From: a virus
Lineage: Duplodnaviria > Caudoviricetes
Reading direction: 5' to 3' (one strand)
Length of the DNA: 64,000 nucleotides
IMG/VR virus record: IMGVR_UViG_3300050821_003608
Span: 466-64,465 of that record
Made by a program: the position numbers and the translations under genes. Each line of letters opens with the position of its first letter. Position 1 is the first letter of the stretch. Under the pieces are notes generated by a model, which had not been told where the DNA came from, did no database searches, and saw only the letters and a program-made list of their open reading frames with translations. Below are positions 1-42,361 of this stretch, piece by piece.

Positions 1-2692
1 TGTACAGGTCATCTGGCGCGTCGTAGTGGAACTTGTTGAACATTGGAGTCCCGCCGTTGAAGGATTCCGGGATGTCCGTGCCGATGACAGTCCCGTAGGA
101 CTCAGCGACGCAAGTCACAGTATTGGAAAGTTTATTGACGTTCACGATATATACTGTGCCGCCAGATCCCGGCCAGCCAACTAGTTCTTGTCGCAGCGTG
201 TCGTAGGTCAACGCTGAGCCATTAATGGCGATAGGCGAGCAGGAAGCGTCGAGTGATGGATGGTTGATAGAGGTGCATCCGGTAGAGATGTCGCACCAGA
301 AGGAGCCGCCGGGGTTCGGGGCGTCGTTTGGCGTAGACATAACCACGACAGCTTGGTTGAGTGTGTCCACACCGAGAGAGCCGTAGAGCGTAGCGTTGGT
401 CGAGAGCGAGGCTGTCTTCGTCCAAGTGTTAGCCACGTCGTCGAACTTCGAGATAGAGGCGACGCCGTTTCCGTTGAAGCTCTCCCATACCCAGATGAGG
501 CCAGACGAAAGGTCGGGAGCCGCCGAAGACATAACGATGTTCTCGCTCGACGGCAAGCCAGCAGGAGTAATTTGTGCCCATGACGCCGAGCAGGTGGGAG
601 CACAAGACTGCGAGATAGTAGTGGTGTCGAGCGACCACATGTTAAACGATGCACAGCCATCGCCGAGCGTGTCCCCAGTGATACGCGCCCAGATGTAGAG
701 ACGATTTAGCCGGGGAGACTTGATGTTGAAGCCGTAGGTATGCCCGGACCCCGGAGCGGAAGCGTCGGGGGAGCCACAGGTCGCAGCAAAGGTCGTCGAG
801 GGGTTGTTCAGTCGCAGTGCATTGTTGGTACGCGGGTTCAGTTCATAGCACTCGTTGCCCAGGTAGTCGCTGTGCCCACCGTTCGAGCAACCGAGCATAC
901 GCGGACCATTCGGGCCGGCAGAATCGAAGGCCAGGCTCGTCCAGGCATTCCATGCTCCCGCGCACTTGCCGCCAAAGGAGTAGGAAGTCCCTCCGAAGTT
1001 ATTCGGAGGACATTGATCGCGTCCGTTTCCTTGTACGGTCGTAGCAGTCGAGAACTTCGTCCACCCGAGCGTGGTCGAGGACGACACAGTGCCATTGTCT
1101 TGCAGATAGAGAATAGCGTCCCGCGCCGATCCCCAAGGTGGAGTGAAGGACTGCGTGGACGAGCCACCTTGGATGGTTGTTCCAGCCGTGTAGGCGCCAT
1201 TCGCGGGGTCGAGCCATTGCACGAGGATGTTGTGGGCGGATTGGTTGGATAGGTTGACGGTGAAGGCTCCACCAGAGGGAGCGTAGACGATAAACTCAAA
1301 GCTAGCATTGGCATTGTTGGCTAGACAGTAGGTCGTGCTACATAGAGAAGTCGAGGCGGACATCGCCGCGAGGTTGAGCACGCGGGAGTTGACGAGATTG
1401 GCTGCGTAGCCGAAGTTGTCGCGGAAGTTGTCGTACCGTGTGTCCACTCCGCCCGTACAGACTCCGTTGACGGGAGTGATGCAGTTGTTGCGGTTCGTCC
1501 AGTTGGGATTGGAAGCGCCCGCGAAGATAGCGTATGGGTCCATGAACATGACCGACGCACCGCGAGTGACGTTCTCCCATAGGAAGTTGCGGTTCTGCTG
1601 GTTGGTTTCTTGCCACAGACCGAAGTAGGAATGGTCGGAGTCGTTCAGGATAGTCTTACAGGCGGGAGCGCCCGTTCCGCAGCCGCTTACCTGGACGACG
1701 TGATAGTTGCCAATGGAGGTCGCACCCAAGGGAGCGACCATGTTAGCGGCAGAGTTGTAGAGCGATGGGTCGTTCGGGGAGTTCACGTTCAGGGTCGGGT
1801 ATAGGACTTGGTGCTGGAAGGGTTTCGTAGCCTCGTAGGACTGGATGACACTGATAACGTGGTTCTGCCAGAAGGTCGATCCCGTCGGCGCTTCTTCGCT
1901 AATTTCCCAAATGACGTTAGGGACATCGTTGAGCGTGTCGATTATCTTGCGGATGTAGGCGTCTTGGAAGGTGTTGATGGAATTGAGCGAGGTCATGGTC
2001 ATCGAGCCTTCGCCCTGCGCACCCGAGGTGTAGCCATCATCAACGGAGTTGATATTGTTGACTCCAGTGAAAGGGAAGCCATCTCCGGTAGGGGAGGAGT
2101 TCCCGCAACGATTTACAGTGAGGCCGAGTCCGTCGAATAGCTCGACGACGGCGTATAGACCAGAGCCGTAGAGTTGCAGCGCACGAGCCCGAGTACGATC
2201 AAAGTAGGATTGGTTGAAGGTCGATAGATCCCACTTGTTGCCGCCGTCGGATGCTCCGGTCGTGGCCGAGCGCGCCCATGGGAAGCCGGAGTCGGCGATA
2301 CGCCACGTTCCGCCCGCCCCCCAGTTGCAGAATTGTGGAATGTCCTTGTGCCACAAGATTGTAGCGTTGTGGTTGTGCGACTTGAGGAAGGCGATATAGT
2401 TGGTGAAGTTGAACGCTGCGGGCGAGGCGGAGGTGTCTTGGTCTTGCAGGTCGTCCCATGTTTGCGAACCGAACAGAAGGATAGGGTGAGTTTGCGAAGG
2501 GACTGCTAGGAAGTTCGAGGCGGGCTGTGCGACTCCCGCCGAGGACAGTGCTCCTAGCGCACAGGTGGGATTACAGACCGCATTGACGGAAGCCTTTCCC
2601 GAGATGGTCGCGCCACCGGAGGCCGAGACGCTCTGTGCCCGAAGCAGGACAGGCCACAGTAAAAGTAGGAGCAGGAGAAGTCGTCGCGGCAT
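1..2692 (-). CDS. Signal-peptide-bearing glycoside hydrolase-like protein (clan GH-A-like barrel, beta-sandwich, propeller-like region); 3' end outside window
   Basis: Missing from the ORF track because it runs off the window. Manual translation from ATG 2692, which overlaps the upstream TGA: MPRRLLLLLLLLWPVLLRAQS...FPWARS..DGGNKWDLSTFNQSYFDR...DTLNDVPNVIWEISEEA...VQWLDPANG. The frame stays open to position 1. Confidence 0.75.
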   Translation of the reverse strand, partial: MPRRLLLLLLLLWPVLLRAQSVSASGGATISGKASVNAVCNPTCALGALSSAGVAQPASNFLAVPSQTHPILLFGSQTWDDLQDQDTSASPAAFNFTNYIAFLKSHNHNATILWHKDIPQFCNWGAGGTWRIADSGFPWARSATTGASDGGNKWDLSTFNQSYFDRTRARALQLYGSGLYAVVELFDGLGLTVNRCGNSSPTGDGFPFTGVNNINSVDDGYTSGAQGEGSMTMTSLNSINTFQDAYIRKIIDTLNDVPNVIWEISEEAPTGSTFWQNHVISVIQSYEATKPFQHQVLYPTLNVNSPNDPSLYNSAANMVAPLGATSIGNYHVVQVSGCGTGAPACKTILNDSDHSYFGLWQETNQQNRNFLWENVTRGASVMFMDPYAIFAGASNPNWTNRNNCITPVNGVCTGGVDTRYDNFRDNFGYAANLVNSRVLNLAAMSASTSLCSTTYCLANNANASFEFIVYAPSGGAFTVNLSNQSAHNILVQWLDPANGAYTAGTTIQGGSSTQSFTPPWGSARDAILYLQDNGTVSSSTTLGWTKFSTATTVQGNGRDQCPPNNFGGTSYSFGGKCAGAWNAWTSLAFDSAGPNGPRMLGCSNGGHSDYLGNECYELNPRTNNALRLNNPSTTFAATCGSPDASAPGSGHTYGFNIKSPRLNRLYIWARITGDTLGDGCASFNMWSLDTTTISQSCAPTCSASWAQITPAGLPSSENIVMSSAAPDLSSGLIWVWESFNGNGVASISKFDDVANTWTKTASLSTNATLYGSLGVDTLNQAVVVMSTPNDAPNPGGSFWCDISTGCTSINHPSLDASCSPIAINGSALTYDTLRQELVGWPGSGGTVYIVNVNKLSNTVTCVAESYGTVIGTDIPESFNGGTPMFNKFHYDAPDDLY

Positions 2693-3411: not shown

Positions 3412-6400
3412 CAGTTCGCCTGCACCGTCAAGAGTCTCGGGATGGTGATGCCCAAGCCATAGATTTCCACGTTCGTCGCGGTGTCGGTCGTGCGAGAGAG
3501 TTGAAGACGCAGGACGCCGCCAGCGATGCAGCCCGTCATGGTGATGGTCGAGAGCGTGGCATCCCATTGGCGGTTTGCGTTACCGTTCAGAGTGATGGTT
3601 GAAAGAGATTGCGCGGTGTTGAAGGCCACGTCGTCGGTGGTCGAGCCGTCTCCCTTAGAGCAAGCCGTCGCGATCTGCATGATGACCGTGTGGCCGTTGG
3701 TCGCGTCGGTCGAGGCCAGACGGAGGCGGACGTTTGGATTGGTCGCGGTGTCCCAATCGGCAGGGAGGCCGATAGACATTTGCGCCGTGTCGGACGCGCC
3801 CCATGTGAGGAAGCCCTCTTTGTTGTTCGTTCCGGCGCGGCAGGTCGCAGCGGGAGTCGCAGCGGTAGACCAGCCCGAGGCCGCAACAGCGTTCACACAG
3901 TCCGCCGCCGGGAAGTAGTGGTAGTCCGGGAAGTCGATATAGGCGGGAGGAGAGCCAGCCGTCAATATCTGCTTGCTAGTACCTGCCGCGAGAGATGCAG
4001 CGCCTTGACCACCACCTGACCCAATCACGACTTGGTTGTTGGTCAGAGCCGAGCCCGAAGTCACACAGGTAGCACAAGCAAGAGTTAGATTGGACGTAAG
4101 GGCTGCGCCACCAGTGATGGGGGAGGTCGTATTGATAGTCAGCGTAGTCGAAGTTGCGACAATGGCACCTGTACCGATCGCAGCCAAGCTGCCCGTCGTG
4201 TCCATCTGGACGCCGTTTGCGGTCCCTACGGCAGTAGCCTTGAACGGTTTCAGTGTCGAGGACGCAGCGGTGTGCAAGAACATCAACGCGCCAGTCGAGG
4301 TGGACGCACCGTCCACGATCTCCCAAGCGTTGCGTGTCCCGGTCATCACGCCATGCGTGAAGAGAGAATTGTTCGTGCCCATCGAGAGCGAGAGGTCCGC
4401 GGCGGGATTTGAGAGCGACGACCACACGGTCGAGGCCGAGCCGGCACAGGAGCCCCATGAGGGGGTGCCACCCGATACGCTGATGGCACAGAGCGTACCC
4501 GCGCCGCCCGTGGCGGTCGAGACTAGCTTCGTGCCGTCGGAATAGATGAAGCCGTTCGTGTTGGCGAGGCCAGAGGATGCGTTCGTACCACCGTTCCCAA
4601 ATGGAAGAGTTCCGGTCACGTCCGCAGTGAGGGACACAGCGGACCACGAGGGCGTCGTGCCTGAGTGTAGGAGTTGCGTCGCGGTTCCCGCAGCTAGACG
4701 CGTCCCGGATCCGCTTGTGCCGCCGTAGAGAATGTCTCCGGCCATGGTCAGGGGGGATAGATTGTTGAAGCAGGCAAGGGCAGTCGATGCACCGCAGCCG
4801 CCGTTGGTCACAGGGAGCGTCCCAGTCACGCCGCCGTTGGTGTTGTTGGAGTTGAGATTGATGGGCAGGATGTCCGCCGCGACTATCAAGCGGAAGGTCG
4901 GAGCCGCAGCTGCGCCGGAGGTGGGACCGACGAGGAAGGAGTTGGCGTTCTGCGAGCCGAACATGCCCCCAGTGATATTGCTGCACGTTGGAGATGTGTT
5001 GTCGTTGGCCGCAGTGACGACAGTGGTCGGGGAGCAGCCTCCTACGCCCGAGGCCGGGAGGAAGGACAACGTGGCTACGCTGGAGACGTTGCTGGCCCGC
5101 AGGAAGCCTGTCGCCGCGGAACCAGGGAGGACTATGGCATAGGACGACGGGATGGATGTAGGAGAGTAGATTCGCGCCGAGTTCGTCCCCAGTGGAGGAG
5201 CGGAAGTCTGCGGCAGGTCGATGTAGGATGCGCCAGAACCGATGCCAGTGAAGGAAGTCCCGGTTACGTTGCCACTCACGTCTACCTTATAGACTGTGGT
5301 GCCGGAGGTATCCTTGTAGTTTTCAAAGTTCCCAGTCGGGCCGGAGTTGGTAAATCGCTGCTGGGTGAGAGTGTCAACTCCGTTCGATGGCTGAAGGATA
5401 GTGTGGCCGGACGTGGCCGAATAGGTCCAGTTCGCCGAGCCGGTGACGGCAGAGGAAGTGTTCCAGAAGGTTCCTTGTCCGGCAGAGCCAGTGCCGCCGA
5501 CCGCGCCGGCTGCGCAGGAGTTCCACGTCGCCGTGGAACCGTTCGATACGAGACAGAGGCCGTTCGTGCCGATGCCGAGGCGTCCGGCCGTGTTTACACC
5601 CGTTCCGAGGATTAGGTCGCCGGTGGAAGTGACGGGCGAGAGTGCGTTGAACGCAGCGGAGGCGGTGACTTGGCCCGTGCCGCCATTGGCGATAGCGGTC
5701 GTACCCGTCGTGTCCGTTCCAAGATTGACAGCAGCATAGGTCGGCGCTCCGGCGGCGTTGCCATGGAGCACGGTCGTCGTCGTGCCAGCGGGACCGATTT
5801 GCGTCGCCTGTCCGCCCGCGCCGAGGACGATTTGATTGTTGGTCAGAGCGGCGGCGTTGGTCGTACAGGTCGGACAAGTGAGGTTCCCTGTCGTGGCCGA
5901 GAGCACAAGCGGCGCCGACGCGCCATCGGCGAACGTGCCCGAAGTGTTCGGGAGGGTGAGAGTCGGCGTCCCCGCAATCGCCTGTGGAGTGATAGTCACT
6001 GTGCCCGAAGTAGCACCAGCCATAGCTAATTGACCAGTAGTCGATGCCGCGACGCCGATAGTCAGAGTAGGCGAAACCCACGTAAGGTTCGCCGAGCCGC
6101 CAAACGACCCAGAGTTATTGAACTGGACTTGGGTGTTCGCGCCGCCAGGCGTGCCCGTGCCAGCGGAGCAGGCCGACCATGAGAGTTGCAGCGAGCCGTT
6201 TGAGGACAGACATTGCGTGCCGGAGGAGTCCGTCGTGGGGAACAGCCACACGAGATTGACGGTGGACGCTCCGCCAGTGAAGCCTGCGTAGTTCGTGCCG
6301 TTGGTGCTGAACCAGCGGATCGCCTTCCCGTTGGCGATAGACTGGTGATCGGTCCACGTCTGGGCGAGATTCAGTTCGGCCAGTGTGCCTGTGTTGTTCG

Positions 6401-28127: not shown

Positions 28128-28249
28128 CACTCGCGGAAGCCTATTGGACAGGCATGATAGTCGGGGGGTGTGTGATGGCCACGCTCGGGTGGTTGGGGTG
28201 GTGGCTTGGGCAGCGACCGTGGCGACAGCCACAGAGGAGGGGATTATGA
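28124..28249 (+). CDS. Small membrane protein
   Basis: MTLAEAYWTGMIVGG...; ATGA-coupled on both sides. Confidence 0.5.
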   Translation: MTLAEAYWTGMIVGGCVMATLGWLGWWLGQRPWRQPQRRGL

Positions 28250-28743
28250 CGCGCGGGGAGGAGCTAGTTCAGGCGCAGGACTATGCGAAGTGGATGGTGC
28301 TGCGCATCGTCCGGGACGAGGAGGACGCCAGGGACGTGCTGCAAACGGCCACGGTCAAGGCACTGGTAGCCTTGCGCGAGGGGAGATTCCGCGGGGACTG
28401 CTCGCTCAAGACGTGGTTCTCGACGATCGCGCAGAACGAGGCCAAGATGGTGCTCAGGGGCAGGCTGGGTGCGAAGGGGACTAGACAGTTTTTGTCATTC
28501 GACGAGGGGGACGGGGCCGAGGTGGAGCAGCTTCGGTCTGAGGAAGTGTCGCCGCTGGAGCGGGTGGTGCAGGGCGAGGTGGTGGCGAGGGTGAGGCACG
28601 CGATAGCGAGGCTCTCCCCGCTGATGAGGGAGGAAGCCGGGAGATGGCTGGCCGGCGACAAGGTAGGCGCAGATGGAAGGCGGAAGGCCAGGCGGCATCA
28701 CGCCAGGGTCAGGCTGAGGGAACTATTGAGTGTGGTCCAATGA
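28246..28743 (+). CDS. ECF-type RNA polymerase sigma factor
   Basis: Region 2 DEEDARDVLQ...FRGDCSLKTWFSTIAQN; AIARLSP; region 4 degenerate. Confidence 0.8.
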   Translation: MTRGEELVQAQDYAKWMVLRIVRDEEDARDVLQTATVKALVALREGRFRGDCSLKTWFSTIAQNEAKMVLRGRLGAKGTRQFLSFDEGDGAEVEQLRSEEVSPLERVVQGEVVARVRHAIARLSPLMREEAGRWLAGDKVGADGRRKARRHHARVRLRELLSVVQ

Positions 28744-28955
28744 GGACGCGAGGGACGAGGCTCTATGTGGAAGGGAAGCACGCACGGGATGCGTGGTGGA
28801 CGAGGGTGTACTGGGTGCCCGTGTTCAGCATGAAGGCGGCCGAGAGGTGGATACCAGTGGCCGATGGGATGACCGTCCCAGGGGAGAGGACGAGGGAAGG
28901 TCTAGGGAGACTACTTCGCATCCGCACGATATGCCAGATGGAGCGGGTCCAGTGA
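28740..28955 (+). CDS. Hypothetical protein
   Basis: ATGA-coupled to the sigma gene. Confidence 0.5.
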   Translation: MRTRGTRLYVEGKHARDAWWTRVYWVPVFSMKAAERWIPVADGMTVPGERTREGLGRLLRIRTICQMERVQ

Positions 28956-29016
28956 CACGTCGGGCTTGGTGGTTCGTGGCGTTGGTGATTTTGGCTGTTT
29001 TGGAGTTGCTCTAAGG

Positions 29017-29865
29017 TCAACTAGGGGGCGACGGAACCGGTGGGACGGTCGAAATCCACACAAACTCACTCTCAGGTGTCTGTGGTCCGTGCGATTTAGT
29101 GTGCCGGAAGCACCCAGGAACCTTGCACAAGGGCTCAGGGGGAGGATCTTGGGTACTACCAACGGAAAAGTTATCCGGTAAGGTGTCTTTCTCTATACCG
29201 GATAACTTTATGTCCTTACGTCCTTGTTGTGAGAGTCCTTGGAAGAACAACACACGTTTGGATAGTTCCAATTCGGCCCGGAGAGAGTAGTTGGTAGGGA
29301 GGTCGGGAGCTAGGACGAGCCGGAGACGCTCGAAGAAGTCCACCTTGGGGTGGGATGAGACTTGGAGGGAGTAGTCGTGGGAGCGGAGCAGTTCGATGGT
29401 CGGAGTCGGGATGGAGTGGATCGAGGCGAGCAGGAGGACCTTGTGGACGAGCCGGCCACCCTCGGGACAGCCCAGCTTGGACAGGATGGGTCCGAGCGGC
29501 GCCAAGAGGGAGCGGATTAGCTTGCCGTCTCCTTCAAAGCGCAGGATCGTGAAGTTCTCCGGGCAGATGAGGTGAAGCTTGCGGTACTTTTCATACTCGG
29601 CCGTGGCGAGGAGCTGGGAACAGTGGATGCACCCGCGGCGCTTACAAGCGGAGATGTTCTGTTTGTACCTGCCTTTGGGGGTGTCGTGCGTCCGCCAGAT
29701 GGTCGAGCAGTTGTCGAGCTTGGCGGCGATCTTGAGGTGGCGCTCGCAGCCAGGGTCGAGGTCGTAGATAAACTGAGCGTAAGACTTGGTGAAGGTGGGG
29801 ACTTGGACGACGTTGCAGAGTTCGTGGAGTTGGGCCAACGTGGGAACGAACTGGTGTGTGGACAT
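29017..29865 (-). CDS. Zinc-binding Rep/IS91-like (HUH-related) protein, putative replication initiator
   Basis: AGGAGAGG RBS; KLDNC...ACKRRGCIHCS, FTILRF, GRLVHKVLLL. It is the only reversed gene in the region. Confidence 0.5.
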   Translation of the reverse strand: MSTHQFVPTLAQLHELCNVVQVPTFTKSYAQFIYDLDPGCERHLKIAAKLDNCSTIWRTHDTPKGRYKQNISACKRRGCIHCSQLLATAEYEKYRKLHLICPENFTILRFEGDGKLIRSLLAPLGPILSKLGCPEGGRLVHKVLLLASIHSIPTPTIELLRSHDYSLQVSSHPKVDFFERLRLVLAPDLPTNYSLRAELELSKRVLFFQGLSQQGRKDIKLSGIEKDTLPDNFSVGSTQDPPPEPLCKVPGCFRHTKSHGPQTPESEFVWISTVPPVPSPPS

Positions 29866-30138
29866 AGGTAGTAGTCCTCTCCTGTGGACACAAGATAGGA
29901 GAGGGGCCGGGGTGTCCACTCCCCGGCCCTTCTGAGAGGTCGAATCGCTCCCGAAGGAGTGCCCGCCCAGCCTCGGGTGGAGATTCGCATAGGTGGGCTG
30001 GTGGCTGTCAAGTAAAAAGTGAGGCTTAGTGAAAAATAATTTAGAGGCTCATCCTACGTAAATACTAGTCATAATTAGACTTGCAGGCGGAGTGCTCGGG
30101 AGATGCTGGCGGGAGGACGCAAGTAACAAAAATAATGC

Positions 30139-30167
30139 TTGACAAGCATTCGGACTTTTGCTAAAAA
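30139..30167 (+). promoter_or_regulatory. Sigma70-type promoter of the replication operon
   Basis: TTGACA-17 nt-TAAAAA with TG extension and A-rich upstream element. Confidence 0.55.
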
Positions 30168-30197
30168 CGAGCCGTTGGCTCGCAATGGAGGTGGACA

Positions 30198-31721
30198 GTG
30201 GAGTGGAGCGCATACCAGAGCGACATTTTCAGGTGGATCGAGGAGAGTCGGGACAGCCTCATCATCGAAGCCGTCGCCGGCTCAGGCAAGACCACGACCA
30301 TCGTCGAGGCCATCAAGCACGTCCCTCCCGAGCAGTCGGTCGTGTTCCTTGCGTTCAACAAGAGCATCGCCGAGGAGCTGAAGCGTAGGGTGACTCAGCC
30401 TAACGCTAAGTGTATGACTTTGCACAGCTTAGGGTTGAGCGCGTGGAAGCAGGCGCTCACTTGGGACGCCCAAGGACTGAACATCGACGGCAAGAAGATC
30501 AGGAACATCATCGACGAGATGGAACTGGAATGGGGGAAGTGGACCAAGGAGATGACCAAGTTGGTCGGGCTCGCCAAGGGCGGAGGGATAGTCCCGAAGG
30601 GATTGGAGGTCAAGTATTCCGGGCTAGTCGAGGACTCCGAGGACGTGTGGGAGGATCTGATGGAGCTGTACGACATCGACCCCGACCAAGTGGACCTTGG
30701 GCTTGTCAGGGAAGTGCTCACGCGCTCGATCGAGCAAGCGCGGGAGGTGATTGATTTTGATGACATGTTGTACATGCCGGTCATCGCGGGGGCGGAGTTT
30801 CAGAAGGCCGACGTGGTGTTTCTGGACGAGGCGCAGGACGTGAACGGGATTCAGGCCGAGATTGTGTCGAGGATGCTCCTACCGGAGTCGCGCGTAGTGG
30901 CCGTGGGCGATCCCAACCAAGCCATCTACGGCTTCCGCGGCGCACTGTCGGACTCCATGCACCAGATTGGAAGGAGATTCCACTGCACGTCCCTCCCGCT
31001 GAGTGTGAGCTATCGCTGCCCGAAGTCGGTGGTGGCGAAGGCGAGGGAGTGGGTCAGCCACATCCTGCCGCATGAGGATTCGATCGAGGGCATCGTGGAG
31101 GACGCGGGGGACTGGCGAGTGGGGGACTTCCGGCCGGGGGACGCCATCCTCTGTAGGAACGCTCGACCGGTGGTCGCCATTGCGTTCCTCCTGATAAGGA
31201 ACAAGGTCGCCGCGAGAGTGGTCGGAAGGGACATCGGACAAGGCTTGGTCAGCCTCATCAATAAGATGAAGGCCTCGACGATCCTCGACCTCGACGAACG
31301 ACTCAGCAAGTATCGGAAGCGCGAAGTCGAGCGCGCGAAGGGGAAGGAAGCCAAGATTGGCGCTCTGGACGACAAGCTCGACACCATCAGAGTGTTCATG
31401 GACGAGGCCGGGCCGCACGCGGGCATCGGGACGCTCATCCAAAGTATCGAGGGCTTGTTCGGCGACGGCGCGGACATGCGCGGCATGGTCACCTGCTCGA
31501 CGGTGCACAAAGCGAAAGGGATGGAGTGGGATCGGGTGTTCGTGCTGGACGCAGACACGCTGATGCCGTCGAGGTGGGCGCGGCAAGCGTGGGAGATGCA
31601 GCAGGAGGACAATCTCTGTTACGTCGCCGCGACGAGGGCCAAGAAGGAGTTACGGTACGTGTCGTCCGAGGGGCTAGGGATAGAGAGGAGGGAGCGTGCC
31701 GCATCGACCGAGAATGCCTAG
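30198..31721 (+). CDS. UvrD/Rep-like SF1A helicase
   Basis: AVAGSGKTT, LAFN, LDEAQD, VGDPNQAIYGFRGA, STVHKAKGMEWD, YVAATRAK. Confidence 0.93.
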   Translation: MEWSAYQSDIFRWIEESRDSLIIEAVAGSGKTTTIVEAIKHVPPEQSVVFLAFNKSIAEELKRRVTQPNAKCMTLHSLGLSAWKQALTWDAQGLNIDGKKIRNIIDEMELEWGKWTKEMTKLVGLAKGGGIVPKGLEVKYSGLVEDSEDVWEDLMELYDIDPDQVDLGLVREVLTRSIEQAREVIDFDDMLYMPVIAGAEFQKADVVFLDEAQDVNGIQAEIVSRMLLPESRVVAVGDPNQAIYGFRGALSDSMHQIGRRFHCTSLPLSVSYRCPKSVVAKAREWVSHILPHEDSIEGIVEDAGDWRVGDFRPGDAILCRNARPVVAIAFLLIRNKVAARVVGRDIGQGLVSLINKMKASTILDLDERLSKYRKREVERAKGKEAKIGALDDKLDTIRVFMDEAGPHAGIGTLIQSIEGLFGDGADMRGMVTCSTVHKAKGMEWDRVFVLDADTLMPSRWARQAWEMQQEDNLCYVAATRAKKELRYVSSEGLGIERRERAASTENA

Positions 31722-38907: not shown

Positions 38908-39312
38908 ATGCCTAGAAAGGGAACGAATCCGTATCGTTCCTCGACTTTTAGACGAAGCTGTCACAGAAAGTCTAGAAGGTTGTATGAGAGAACGTACAAT
39001 ATAAAACTCCCTTACTGGGTTGATGTTCATCATAAGAACGGCGACTACGCTGACATCAGAATAGAAAACCTCGTTGCTCTGGATGAGGCTACTCACAACC
39101 GAGTTCACTTCACCAAGCACTCCGAGCCTATACGATGGAAGCGCCCTGAGCACAAGAAGTATCAAAGAGAATATAAAAAGAGGATTCGGGTTGTGAGGAT
39201 TTGCGCTAGGTGTGGTGCGTCTTTTACGTGCGACAAGTATCACAAGGGTCTATGTTGCTCAGTTGGATGCTATCTGAGAGGAATGTCTCGTGGCAGCTCG
39301 TTCAAAGCCTAA
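38908..39312 (+). CDS. HNH homing endonuclease
   Basis: DVHHKNGDYADIRIENL...HNRVH plus C-terminal CxxC..C; lower GC. Confidence 0.8.
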   Translation: MPRKGTNPYRSSTFRRSCHRKSRRLYERTYNIKLPYWVDVHHKNGDYADIRIENLVALDEATHNRVHFTKHSEPIRWKRPEHKKYQREYKKRIRVVRICARCGASFTCDKYHKGLCCSVGCYLRGMSRGSSFKA

Positions 39313-42300
39313 CTCGTGTATTGGTTGTGTCTGTCACGACATGGGAACGGACTTCTCTGCGATCGAGGGCACGGGCAGCTCGGGGATTATGTTGGTGGGG
39401 GAGGCGTCAGGTGAGCATGAACAACGCGATGGGCTACCGTTTCGACCTCACGCCCCTGCTGGCGGAGTTCTGGAGCGCACTCTTCGGCGCATGGGCCTTG
39501 ATCGTCAGCAATTCTCCATTACTAACGTTGTGCGCTGTCGTCCTCGCAAAAATTGGCTGGAAGGCTCTCCGTGGGAATTTTCGGCTATCAATCATTGTCG
39601 TCCCAACTTGGACGCCGCCATTGCCGAGCGCCGTCCGCGTGTCATCGTCGCGCTCGGAGGGACCGCGCTCAGGGAATTGACGGGAATGGCCGGGGAGGCG
39701 CAGGGGATTTCTCACTTGGCTGGCTATGTGTTGCCCCTCGCGATTCCTACGATGATTCCCTGTTCGGAGCCAGCAGAGTTGGATGGGAAGCACCATCCTA
39801 ATTGTTTCATCTGTGGGGGGTCGGGATTCATCGGAGGGCGTGGAGCTGGGACCATCCCAGTGATTGGAGACTTCCACCCCTCCTTCCTGCGCCACGGGAA
39901 GATGGCCCTCGGCGGGGTGTTCGCCCGCATCCTCCAGCGCGCCACCAATATCGCGAAGGGATTGGATAGGGAGTGGCTGTGGGGAGTGGACCCACGAGAC
40001 CATTCCACTTGGGGGAAAAAGCAGTACGTAATTCATCCGTCCGTGGATGACGCACGAGCCCTACGGAACCGCGTCTACGACAATCAGAATATTCCCGTGG
40101 CAGAGGACATCGAGACTCCCGAGTCTGCCTCTATGGACGAAGACGCCCGAGACGGATACAAAGACACGGAGATCCGCCAGATTCAATTCAGCATGGGCAA
40201 GGGCGAGGGGATGGCCTTTCCGTGGGAGGAGCCGTTCCGGTCCATCGCTTCGGAGATTATGCACTCTCCTAACCCGAAGTATGGGCACAACTGGGACAAC
40301 TACGACCACAAAGTTCTGCGAGCGGCGGCAGCCCGTGAGGGGTGGAGTTATGCCCCCACAGTTCGGGTTCTGGACACTCTGGACTTATTCCATCATTGGC
40401 AGCCCGACCTTCCGGCGCATCTCCAGTTTGCCTGTAACTTTATCTCGTTCCCCTTTCCTTGGAAGCACCTGCATACGCTAGAGAACGAGCCTTTCTATGG
40501 CTGTGTGGACGTAGACTCGGACTGGCAGCTCGGGGAGATGCTCATTAGGACGTTGAAGCGCGACGACATGTACGGGTTCGCTCAGTCGTCGATTGGGTAC
40601 ATAGGGCAGGTCTATGAGGTCCGCCCGGTCCTCGCCGCGATGGAGGACCGCGGGATGCCCATCGACGACGCTGCGAGGCTGGCGCTCGACGTGGAGTTTG
40701 AGATTGCCCAGCGCGAGTTGGGCACAGAGCTGGCGAAGCTGGCGCCCAGACAGTGCGGAAGACTCCAGCCCAAGGAGGGATACAAAGGGGTTCCTCCAGA
40801 GATGAAGCCGTGGATTAACACTCCACAGTTACAGGAGGAGATGGACCGCCCGAGGCTTGACGACAGGGAATACTACCACTACGCGATTTACGACTTCCCC
40901 GTGGCAATCAGAGGAGCCAACGATGAGCTAGCTATCGAGAAGGTGGACCGCTGGGTCCGCGTCTACGACTTCAACCCGAACTCTCGGCCGCAAATCATCA
41001 ACTACATGAAGGCCAAGGGCCACCCGGTCCCCAAGTCGAAGGAAGAAGACTCCGAGGGCAATGCGAAGGAGACCACTGCGGCGAAGGAGCTGATGCGCCT
41101 CGCCGCGAAGACGGGGGACGACTTCTATCTCAAGTGCAATCAGTACAAGGGATATACGAAGATGCGCGGCACCTACGTCGCGGGATTCATCCCCGGCGAG
41201 GACGGCTGCGTACACACGACCTTCACCTTCGACACCGGAATTGGGCAGCTATCTTCCAGAAATCCTAATATCCAGAACTTCCCCAAGCTGAAGCCTACCC
41301 CCGCGATCGCCAAGTCCATGCGCAAGATGGTCGCGGCCAAGCCGGGGCACGTACTGACGGAGTGGGACTTCAAATCCTGCCACGTCATCACGCTCGGCTT
41401 CCTGGCCGAAGACCTGAACTACATGAGACTGGGGAGATTGGACATCCACTCGTTCGTCGCCGGCCACTTTCTCGGCCACTGGGATGGACTGAAGATATTC
41501 GGCGAGACCGACGAGGAGTTGCTGGCCCGATTCAAATGGCTGAAATCGGACGAAGTAAGAAGGACGGTGCGCGATGACCAAGCCAAGCATGGGATACTTG
41601 GTATTGGTAACGGGCTCAAAGCGAAGGGTCTTTACGAACGCTACATGGAATCGTTTCCTCCAACGCCATGCCAGGTCTGCGCTGGAACGGGCAAGGTTGC
41701 AGGCGTCCGTGGGCCTAAGAAGTGCGCGTCGTGTCAAGGAATAGGGAAGGTCCCCGGCCAGCGAGTCGCCGAGCGCGTCCTCGAAGTGTGCGAATCCCTC
41801 TTCCCGAACGTCTTCGCCTACCAGAAGCGGGAAGTGAAACAAGCACACGAGCAGCAATTCCTCAAGACCGACTTCGGGCATATTCGCCGCTTCTACGAGG
41901 TGTTCCGCTGGGACCATCGCCGTGGCGACTGGGGGCCGGGTGACCAGCATGAGGAGGCAGTGGCGTTCCGCCTTGCGAACATCGCGTTCGGGCATATACG
42001 GGAGAAGCTCAAACAGTTGCACTACTCGGGGCTGGCCGAGCGATGGGGACTTTTCAACAACGTACATGATAGCTTCCTCTTTAATTTCCCCGAGAGTCAG
42101 TTAGAGGAGCATGTCGCCGAGGTCTACCCTGTCCTCGTCGAACCATCGAAGGTGCTGCGTCATCCAACGATATGCCCTGACGGACTGGTGATCGGTGTCG
42201 AAGGCGCGTGGGGCAGGACGTGGGCCGACATGCAGGAGATCAAGGTCGGGGTCAGTGCGGCATCCTCCAGCCATGAGCCGGAGGTATCTCGTGACGCGCA

Positions 42301-42361
42301 CACGTCTCAAAGCGCGGATCTGGCAACTGCGCGAATGGGAACCGATAGGGGAACGCTGTGA
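39290..42361 (+). CDS. Family A DNA polymerase with N-terminal family-4 uracil-DNA glycosylase-like domain (SPO1-type architecture)
   Basis: UDG motifs GEASG..E..GLPF, TNVVRCRP, HPSF; exonuclease DIET, GHN..YD, Y...D; LSSRNPNIQNFP; motif C VHDS. Confidence 0.92.
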   Translation: MAARSKPNSCIGCVCHDMGTDFSAIEGTGSSGIMLVGEASGEHEQRDGLPFRPHAPAGGVLERTLRRMGLDRQQFSITNVVRCRPRKNWLEGSPWEFSAINHCRPNLDAAIAERRPRVIVALGGTALRELTGMAGEAQGISHLAGYVLPLAIPTMIPCSEPAELDGKHHPNCFICGGSGFIGGRGAGTIPVIGDFHPSFLRHGKMALGGVFARILQRATNIAKGLDREWLWGVDPRDHSTWGKKQYVIHPSVDDARALRNRVYDNQNIPVAEDIETPESASMDEDARDGYKDTEIRQIQFSMGKGEGMAFPWEEPFRSIASEIMHSPNPKYGHNWDNYDHKVLRAAAAREGWSYAPTVRVLDTLDLFHHWQPDLPAHLQFACNFISFPFPWKHLHTLENEPFYGCVDVDSDWQLGEMLIRTLKRDDMYGFAQSSIGYIGQVYEVRPVLAAMEDRGMPIDDAARLALDVEFEIAQRELGTELAKLAPRQCGRLQPKEGYKGVPPEMKPWINTPQLQEEMDRPRLDDREYYHYAIYDFPVAIRGANDELAIEKVDRWVRVYDFNPNSRPQIINYMKAKGHPVPKSKEEDSEGNAKETTAAKELMRLAAKTGDDFYLKCNQYKGYTKMRGTYVAGFIPGEDGCVHTTFTFDTGIGQLSSRNPNIQNFPKLKPTPAIAKSMRKMVAAKPGHVLTEWDFKSCHVITLGFLAEDLNYMRLGRLDIHSFVAGHFLGHWDGLKIFGETDEELLARFKWLKSDEVRRTVRDDQAKHGILGIGNGLKAKGLYERYMESFPPTPCQVCAGTGKVAGVRGPKKCASCQGIGKVPGQRVAERVLEVCESLFPNVFAYQKREVKQAHEQQFLKTDFGHIRRFYEVFRWDHRRGDWGPGDQHEEAVAFRLANIAFGHIREKLKQLHYSGLAERWGLFNNVHDSFLFNFPESQLEEHVAEVYPVLVEPSKVLRHPTICPDGLVIGVEGAWGRTWADMQEIKVGVSAASSSHEPEVSRDAHTSQSADLATARMGTDRGTL

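Follow-up and report, generated by a model that had tools for sequence, protein, structure and literature searches.

Does the leader of a phage gene for a Rep-like protein act as an RNA switch on translation, and if so, is it the switch known from plasmid replication genes? The question is raised by a stretch of 64,000 nucleotides (nt), here called the window, which makes up nearly all of the 64,465-bp uncultivated virus record IMGVR_UViG_3300050821_003608 with its direct terminal repeats. In the window, a 332-bp divergent intergenic region lies between the minus-strand gene for the cysteine-rich protein P0001 and a plus-strand gene for a UvrD-like helicase. An earlier note, made from the sequence alone, had proposed that the leader of the P0001 gene hides its ribosome-binding site in a hairpin, that the loop of a hairpin upstream can pair next to that site, and that the arrangement reflects plasmid-like copy control or a structured single-stranded origin. 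Following the computational analysis reported here, we regard it as an evenly balanced proposition that the leader is a cis-acting translational operator on this monocistronic gene, which encodes a protein with a zinc ribbon and a predicted Rep_1-like fold, and that it switches between a pair of hairpins and an H-type pseudoknot.

Anatomy of the leader

Every element of the two hairpins that had been described was found on the minus strand where it had been placed (Table 1). Hairpin 1 consists of the arms GGGCCGGGG (29929-29921) and CCCCGGCCC (29912-29904) around the loop AGTGGACA (29920-29913; AGUGGACA as RNA, 8 nt), and can be extended to 29932-29901 with one A.C mismatch. Hairpin 2 follows directly, with 0 nt in between, and its 8-bp stem of CCTCTCCT (29904-29897) and AGGAGAGG (29883-29876) encloses the 13-nt loop ATCTTGTGTCCAC (29896-29884). 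The ribosome-binding site is indeed the 3' arm of this second hairpin, and in the nested ensemble the probability of being unpaired was 0.00-0.19 for this Shine-Dalgarno (SD) arm, 0.83-1.0 for loop 1 and 0.61-0.93 for the downstream strand of the loop pairing (S2b), so that loop 1 and S2b, both mostly unpaired, are displayed. The reported exact complementarity between the loop-1 word GTGGACA and the TGTCCAC beside the ribosome-binding site (29890-29884) was also confirmed, and it extends to 8 nt when the first base of the hairpin-1 stem is released. A further element, absent from the earlier note, is a second TGTCCAC lying over the start codon, with which loop 1 forms its best duplex (-11.5 kcal/mol, compared with -9.7 kcal/mol for the S2 duplex beside the SD arm).

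The two hairpins are also distinctive as local structures. Hairpin 1 (-22.2 kcal/mol; hairpin 2 alone, -12.7 kcal/mol) is the longest inverted repeat in the window with non-overlapping arms (16-nt arms) and the second-longest overall among 22 short-range ones, and the 66-nt stretch holding both hairpins folded with a z-score of -3.25, which was equalled by 1 of 200 shuffles.

The loop pairing recurs with other letters in a relative

The leader of the window was compared with those of three relatives (L025, L002 and L003). A helicase-profile scan of IMG/VR had yielded 80 loci, and a profile of the P0001 family (alignment A1) was then run over 105 loci in all, among which the family gene was found only in the window's own locus, L025, L002 (= L026) and L003 (= L027); in all three relatives it is divergent from the helicase module. 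L025, the closest of the three, is a 1683-bp metagenome contig (A1 profile E 1e-110) carrying P0002, which is 39% identical to P0001 (phmmer E 2.7e-36), while L002 and L003 come from IMG/VR (E 3.3e-17 and 2.1e-08, respectively, or 8e-18 and 5.5e-9 on fewer loci).

In L025, hairpin 1 has an 8-nt loop (ACCCAAAG) on a 10-bp stem (GGGGUCGAUG/CGUCGGCCCC) that includes two G.U pairs, and the elements follow one another in the order putative promoter, hairpin, 7 nt, CUUUGGG, AGAGU and AUG. Loop positions 2-8 (CCCAAAG) are exactly complementary to CUUUGGG, the 7 nt directly ahead of the SD arm. A 7-nt complement arose in 11 of 5000 cases when the downstream part was shuffled by dinucleotides and in 58 of 5000 when the loop was shuffled (energy fraction 0.017), and the pairing word CCCAAAG has exactly two sites in the 1683-bp contig, both of them in the loop pairing. 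Comparison of the S2 pairs by eye showed that six of the seven differ from those of the window on both sides, while one is the same. MAFFT, which aligned the window and L025 by sequence and not by structure, placed an indel of 8 nt, which is TGTCCACA in the window, between TATCTTG and GGAGAG, exactly where S2b lies, which indicates that loop 1 tracks whatever adjoins the SD arm. L025 thus keeps the position of hairpin 1, the loop length and the complementarity between the loop and the bases before the SD arm through compensatory changes. The SD is masked by a local stem-loop in L025 and L002 as well, and in the minimum free energy (MFE) fold of L025 a far-upstream anti-SD, ACUCUCCC, pairs with it. 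A one-mismatch scan for GTGGACA and a scan of the loci for CTATCTT were both uninformative.

Two folds proposed as alternatives

The minus-strand stretch from 29866 to about 29978 would be a 5' untranslated leader that influences the initiation of translation in cis and at the RNA level. In the proposed ground state, the SD arm AGGAGAGG would be paired with the anti-SD arm CCUCUCCU in hairpin 2, directly after the very stable hairpin 1, and in the alternative state 7 nt of loop 1 would pair with the 7 nt directly 5' of the SD arm and displace the anti-SD. The resulting H-type pseudoknot would have a stem S1 of 9 bp (10 in L025), a loop L1 of 1 nt, a stem S2 of 7 bp, a loop L2 of 0 nt and a loop L3 of 13 nt (7 in L025), which would make the leader bistable, with tandem hairpins as one form and the pseudoknot as the other. 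A kissing complex of two intact hairpins was rejected, as there is no linker between them; given the 0-nt linker, loop pairing and hairpin 2 appear to be mutually exclusive.

Since S2b emerges before the SD arm in transcription, the pseudoknot could form first and later yield to the hairpin. Such a co-transcriptional folding order is one candidate trigger of the switch, next to a protein that binds the pseudoknot (possibly the product of the gene itself) and an RNA acting in trans, and loop 1 of the window could in addition pair over the AUG. A search of the rest of the phage for a trans partner of loop 1 gave 15 matches at ≤3 mismatches, compared with 9 expected, none of them convincing.

Table 1 Elements of the P0001 leader and the genes on either side of it; coordinates are those of the window
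Feature	Coordinates	Strand	Remarks
P0001 gene, 282-aa Cys-rich protein	29017..29865	-	zinc ribbon and predicted Rep_1-like alpha/beta fold
ATG start codon (29865-29863) and the second UGUCCAC overlapping it (29864-29858)	29858..29865	-
Shine-Dalgarno arm AGGAGAGG, 3' arm of hairpin 2	29876..29883	-	10 nt before ATG
UGUCCAC, 3' strand of S2 (S2b)	29884..29890	-	last 7 nt of the hairpin-2 loop; abuts the SD arm
Anti-SD arm CCUCUCCU, 5' arm of hairpin 2	29897..29904	-	would lie inside loop L3 if the pseudoknot forms
Hairpin 1 (S1)	29904..29929	-	9-bp all-G/C stem, 8-nt loop
Loop-1 word GUGGACA, 5' strand of S2	29913..29919	-	exact complement of 29890-29884 and 29864-29858
CCTCTC, second anti-SD copy 5' of hairpin 1	29934..29939	-	complementary to GAGAGG of the SD arm
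Upstream leader hairpin: CCCGAGG (29977-29971), 13-nt loop, CCTTCGGG (29957-29950)	29950..29977	-	predicted fold; sequence not conserved in relatives
GCGAATCT, putative -10 region	29981..29988	-	overlaps the CGAATC arm (29987-29982)
TTGACA, putative -35 box of the P0001 gene promoter	30006..30011	-	from conservation only
UvrD-like helicase gene	start GTG 30198	+	Pfam E 1.4e-24, PHROG 1967 E 2.5e-104

Switch or plain structured leader

By a rough estimate, the two forms are close enough in energy for a switch: as a hand sum of nested-fold terms and the Dirks-Pierce pseudoknot penalty (about 9.6 kcal/mol), the pseudoknot of the window came to about -28 kcal/mol against -32 to -34 kcal/mol for the tandem hairpins, i.e. 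4-6 kcal/mol above them, and that of L025 to -23 against -22 kcal/mol, about level. The provisional nature of these sums is one of a number of points that weigh against the operator. The loop-pairing statistics of the window itself (a 7-nt complement between loop and downstream part arose in 49 of 5000 loop shuffles and, with the downstream part shuffled by dinucleotides, in 158 of 5000 cases; shuffle fraction by duplex energy 0.007) are post hoc. The full leader folds no better than its shuffles (z = -0.78 for 146 nt, 49/200; z = -1.10 for 124 nt), and opening the initiation region (-18 to +6) costs 10.1 kcal/mol, which is rank 24 among 54 open reading frames (ORFs) in this 60% G+C genome, so that occlusion of the SD is not exceptional. 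In the window, the two-hairpin stretch folds alike on both strands (sense -33.7 and antisense -36.1 kcal/mol; antisense z = -3.24), no Rfam 15 family came close to its threshold (the top match, to the terminator part of ar35, scored 18.4 bits where the gathering score is 45), and a consensus promoter scan of 28500-30500 on both strands scored no promoter-like site. The pseudoknot would, moreover, abut and free the SD in the window and cover 3 nt of it in L025, so that no single on/off logic fits both. What stands out is thus the local hairpins and the loop complementarity, not the overall foldedness and not SD occlusion as such.

The other two relatives point in the same direction. In L002, tandem hairpins are present in other letters, with a 16-bp stem followed by CUCCUUCU-CGGCC-AGAAGGAG holding the SD (z = -5.81, 0/200 shuffles), but the loop match is only 4 nt (GGAG:CUCC), which was reached in 3094 of 5000 shuffles (energy fraction 0.62). 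The leader of L003 is short and weakly folded (z = -0.98), with neither tandem hairpins nor loop pairing. Conservation of the complementarity in relatives, on which the earlier note had staked its proposal, therefore held for L025, in different letters, and failed for L002 and L003. The loop pairing is present in only two sequences, of three leaders with hairpin 1, and it is mainly for this reason that the RNA switch is put no higher than an even prospect.

A simpler possibility is that the SD hairpin damps translation constitutively, that hairpin 1 is a stabiliser, a pause site or a processing site, and that the loop complementarity has no function. Such a leader would account for L002, which has both hairpins without the loop pairing, and for L003, which has neither, and it agrees with an occlusion energy that is ordinary for the genome and with the hand sum, by which the hairpin form is the more stable one in the window. 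It does not explain why the same 7-nt complementarity recurs in L025 at the same loop positions with six of seven pairs changed on both sides: at 39% protein identity, a pairing not under selection should have decayed. We consider the simple structure unlikely.

The Rep-like protein and the possibility of a DNA element

How far P0001 is a Rep-like protein bears on whether the repeats could act as DNA. The protein matched no Pfam or PHROG family, and no relatives were found by tblastn in phage records, among IMG/VR loci or by a word-index protein search; a word-index search with the profile of alignment A6 returned only P0001 itself. Of the family members, P0002 and P0003 were not found in IMG/VR, nor P0005 among genome contigs. 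A HMMER search gave 17 proteins at E ≤0.001, P0001 included, of which 10 were at ≤1e-10, and the 10 members that were looked up came from metagenome assemblies, mostly Logan assemblies, with Logan, ENA and NCBI contigs of 61.6, 63.2 and 26 kb among them. P0001 belongs to an unannotated family of about 15 members, all metagenomic, with a zinc ribbon (C-x20-C-x4-C-x2-C) at the N-terminus and a cysteine cluster at the C-terminus. The invariant positions of alignment A1 are C53, C74, C79, C82, Y94 and C252, and Y94 is preceded four residues before by E90 in 9 of 14 members. The N-termini of the family match the MST... of P0001, and a protein extended N-terminally from GUG 29919 was discarded as a candidate, given that the homologues start at ATG.

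A confident AlphaFold model of P0001 built on the family alignment (predicted local distance difference test, pLDDT, 84.4; predicted template-modelling score, pTM, 0.73) gave no match at E ≤0.001 with Foldseek against the PDB. With VIA-align, the best matches of residues about 100-215 were HUH Rep domains, namely those of SIRV1 ORF119, a circovirus, a nanovirus, Vientovirus, pMV158 RepB and a Helitron, at Z 4.2-5.9, which is below the caution line of Z 8 and may reflect a common arrangement. The ESM Atlas model reached template-modelling (TM) scores of 0.53-0.64 to clusters in which Rep_1 (PF01446) and the IS91 zinc-binding domain predominate, and six of the ten rows were clusters in which 63-97% of the members carry Rep_1. 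None of 14 family members matched the Rep_1 Pfam family even at E up to 10, and two of the 14 matched Zn_Tnp_IS91 weakly. The catalytic motifs that define Rep_1 are the HUH motif and a tyrosine (PMC5703833), and alignment A1 contains no conserved His pair for an HUH motif. The label 'Rep-like' therefore stands at the fold level (TM about 0.6 to Rep_1 clusters; HUH Rep Z 4.2-5.9) and finds no counterpart in Pfam or PHROG; it is a fold-level lead from structure models only, because there is no sequence match and the catalytic motifs of Rep_1 were not found.

The inverted repeats could instead serve the Rep-like protein as DNA, either as binding sites or as a cruciform, and would then be an origin, a nick site located in a hairpin loop or an operator for auto-repression, with TGTCCAC as an iteron-like word. 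The zinc ribbon and the predicted Rep_1-like fold of P0001 speak for such a DNA-level replication element, and so does the layout: in rolling-circle replication (RCR) plasmids the double-strand origin (dso) usually lies in a palindrome upstream of rep, spreading of RepU from the dso extends to the promoter of rep, and UvrD is required in E. coli for the replication of pC194 (PMC5703833). Here, similarly to the dso of Rep_1 plasmids (pC194/pUB110), a palindrome lies upstream of a gene for a predicted Rep_1-like fold, with a UvrD-like helicase gene divergently next door. Furthermore, GTGGACA/TGTCCAC occurs 13 times in the 64-kb window, with four of the copies within 340 bp (29858-30197), in the window both strands of the hairpin stretch fold equally well, and the AT-rich spacer between the divergent promoters contains an 11-mer shared with L025.

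Several points speak against this. The Rep_1 nick word, CTTGATA (PMC10378824), occurs in the window only at 4884 and 25347 and is absent from the leader region, so that the structured single-stranded origin that had been suggested finds no support. The protein itself has neither a Pfam Rep_1 match in any of the 14 members nor a conserved His pair, and its fold scores are in the range that VIA-align calls common arrangements. The distance between the half-sites is not constant (the window and L025 differ by 5 bp), L025 has only two copies of its own word, and the G.U pairs make the repeats of L025 and L002 imperfect as duplex palindromes. The copy of the 7-mer at 30191-30197, situated between SD and GTG start codon in front of the helicase gene, looks inherited, since L003 has ATGGACA at the matching helicase-side position. 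Finally, a protein site would give no reason for its half-sites to lie exactly in two RNA hairpin loops.

The strands provide a further comparison. The sense strand folds better than the antisense strand in L025 (MFE -23.1 and -12.7 kcal/mol, respectively) and in L002 (-39.8 and -31.9 kcal/mol), a preference that arises from the G.U pairs, and in L025 the sense z-score was -2.31 (6/200 shuffles) and that of the antisense +0.60 (142/200). This asymmetry fits an RNA from the coding strand, and not a duplex-DNA palindrome or an antisense RNA. The spacing of the two 7-mers of the loop pairing (22 nt in the window, 17 nt in L025) is likewise easier to reconcile with RNA loops, which are flexible, than with a dimeric operator of rigid geometry. 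The asymmetry, the spacing and the missing nick word favour the RNA reading over a DNA role, and we consider a DNA-level element unlikely.

Comparison with plasmid copy control and other leaders

The closest likeness of the proposed operator is to plasmid rep genes. Control of translation by hairpin versus pseudoknot is established for repZ of ColIb-P9 (PMC4705826). In ColIb-P9 (IncI-alpha) repZ and IncB/IncL-M repA, which are also subject to an antisense Inc RNA, a stem-loop masks the SD of a gene of the replication type, and an upstream loop in repZ is complementary to the bases directly 5' of the SD and competes with the inhibitory structure, as in the window (PMC4705826). The pairing, however, is 7 nt long here in contrast to the 4-nt GGCG/CGCC given there (PMC4705826), and in L025 it overlaps the SD. 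The present leader differs from that of ColIb-P9 in lacking a leader peptide and any detectable antisense gene and in having an AUG with a strong SD, and it belongs to a 64-kb phage with terminal repeats and not to a plasmid; the proteins are unrelated by sequence.

It might nevertheless be asked whether full copy control of the IncI/IncB or pT181 type operates here, with a plus-strand antisense RNA acting on hairpin 1 and either blocking the pseudoknot or inducing termination. The topology is that described for ColIb-P9, with an upstream loop that pairs just 5' of a masked SD (PMC4705826), and the plus strand of the window also forms stable hairpins. No promoter-like or terminator-like site was scored in 28500-30500 on either strand, though, and no U-tract follows hairpin 1 on either strand of the window or L025. 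Antisense folding is poor in L025 (z = +0.60), and in L002 the antisense hairpins are less stable than the sense ones. A leader peptide that stops near the SD is likewise missing: the leader of the window has no AUG downstream of the putative -10 box, its GUG 29919 is in frame with the P0001 gene without a stop, the TTG-initiated frame from 29893 runs 83 codons, and the leader AUG of L025 meets no stop in 89 codons. The AUG and strong SD also differ from the weak GUG signal of ColIb-P9 (PMC4705826). Of 57 ORFs of the window scanned against Pfam, none was assigned to integrase, recombinase or partition families, and the phage genome has its own polymerase, helicases, terminase and portal. Antisense copy control is thus very improbable, and neither the plasmid-like copy control suggested at the outset nor IncI/IncB-type control as such is supported. 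With neither a leader peptide nor any hint of an antisense RNA, the leader is not a member of the IncI/IncB plasmid system.

A second likeness is to the E. coli rpsO operator for ribosomal protein S15, where the leader adopts one of two folds, a double hairpin or a pseudoknot, and the fold adopted governs translation (PMC3985624). The same alternation is suggested here, with both pairings possible and apparently exclusive. In rpsO, the gene product binds the pseudoknot, whereas here there is no known partner and no similarity in sequence or in Rfam. By analogy, the logic of the leader resembles that of the IncI/IncB rep pseudoknot and of the rpsO operator.

The pseudoknot element of phage T4 gene 32 is a nucleation site for a cooperative single-stranded DNA-binding protein and not an SD-occluding switch. 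Gene 32 is nonetheless comparable as a phage replication-module gene with a leader pseudoknot (predicted in the present case) for translational control, which in T4 is autogenous (PMC535899); there is no homology.

Putative promoters and surrounding genes

The sequence CTTGACA is invariant in all four aligned leaders, and the 8-mer GCGAATCT is identical in L025, where it also lies downstream of TTGACA; the matching -10 place reads GGCATT in L002 and AGCAAT in L003. The conserved TTGACA and GCGAATCT would be the promoter of the P0001 gene, from which we infer transcription of the leader. This bears on the outer structure, for which a three-way junction closed by CGAATC/GATTCG had been proposed. 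Folding gave a single hairpin inside this 6-bp helix, and the partner arm GATTCG is not in L025. Its 5' arm lies on the conserved -10-like box and is more likely a -10 box than RNA, and it is probably not transcribed; the junction is accordingly dropped. In 28500-30500, neither strand held a terminator-like site (0 scored). The tails after hairpin 1 read CUCUCCUAUCUU in the window, ACUCUAUCUUUG in L025 and UCUCCUUCUCGG in L002, and an intrinsic terminator or pT181-like attenuator was rejected for want of a U-tract directly after hairpin 1.

On the helicase side, the palindrome GCTTGTCAAGC at 30137-30147 holds a plus-strand TTGACA, which is followed 17 nt on by TAAAAC. A similar layout is present in L002, L003 and L025, and the consensus scan scored no promoter there; the TTGACA/TAAAAC pair is likely, from its sequence, to be the promoter of the helicase operon. 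Just upstream of the helicase-side ribosome-binding site, a small hairpin (GAGCC-AAC-GGCTC, 30169-30181 in the window) is kept in all four loci with compensatory changes (GAGTC/GACTC in L025, GACTC/GAGTC in L002), and it may form a stem-loop at the 5' end of the rightward mRNA or be a palindrome recognised by a protein. The spacer that separates the divergent promoters is AT-rich and contains the 11-mer TTATGACTAGT, identical in the window (30064-30074) and L025 (499-509), which makes it a candidate operator or origin element by sequence; ATGAC-like words recur in L002 and L003. L025 also carries, by visual inspection, a small Cys-containing ORF of about 105 aa (51-400, minus strand) between the control region and the helicase start, with no counterpart in the window.

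Genes near the leader encode, among others, a Dda/PIF1-like helicase, a fusion of a uracil-DNA-glycosylase-superfamily domain to a family A DNA polymerase (39290-42361), a sigma-70 region 2 protein (28144-28743; Pfam E 2.4e-07), a terminase and a portal protein. At the DNA level, likeness to known phages is confined to the helicase segment, where 17 records matched 11% of the 2.1-kb query at 74-79% identity, mostly Pseudomonas NP1/PaMx25-like phages. In Pseudomonas phage NP1 (NC_031058.1, L024), same-strand genes precede the homologous helicase gene and no divergent Rep-like gene is annotated, which suggests that the divergent module is specific to the clade of the window. The window sequence is present in DNA runs labelled soil metagenome, and the leader was identical in contigs from three such runs, which hence supplied no natural variants.

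Implications

If the loop pairing is not real, what is left is an ordinary structured 5' leader. In its most far-reaching form, the proposal is that of an undescribed phage cis-RNA: a self-contained bistable leader whose loop word co-evolves with the neighbour of the SD. Its role would be that of an autogenous operator, or of a timer that works during transcription, for a catalytically degenerate Rep_1-fold protein with a zinc ribbon, encoded beside the helicase in the replication control region of the phage; it would be a functional counterpart in a virulent phage of plasmid rep control that dispenses with leader peptide and antisense RNA. In that extended form we find it rather doubtful. Should the switch prove true, it would be a new RNA motif, absent from Rfam, that joins the few known hairpin-to-pseudoknot gates of translation, and it would extend such logic beyond plasmids and the operons of ribosomal proteins to an uncultivated phage from soil. 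A true switch would also imply tight dosage control of an unannotated family of Rep-fold zinc-finger proteins encoded beside a phage helicase, and would thereby offer a first handle on the role of this family.

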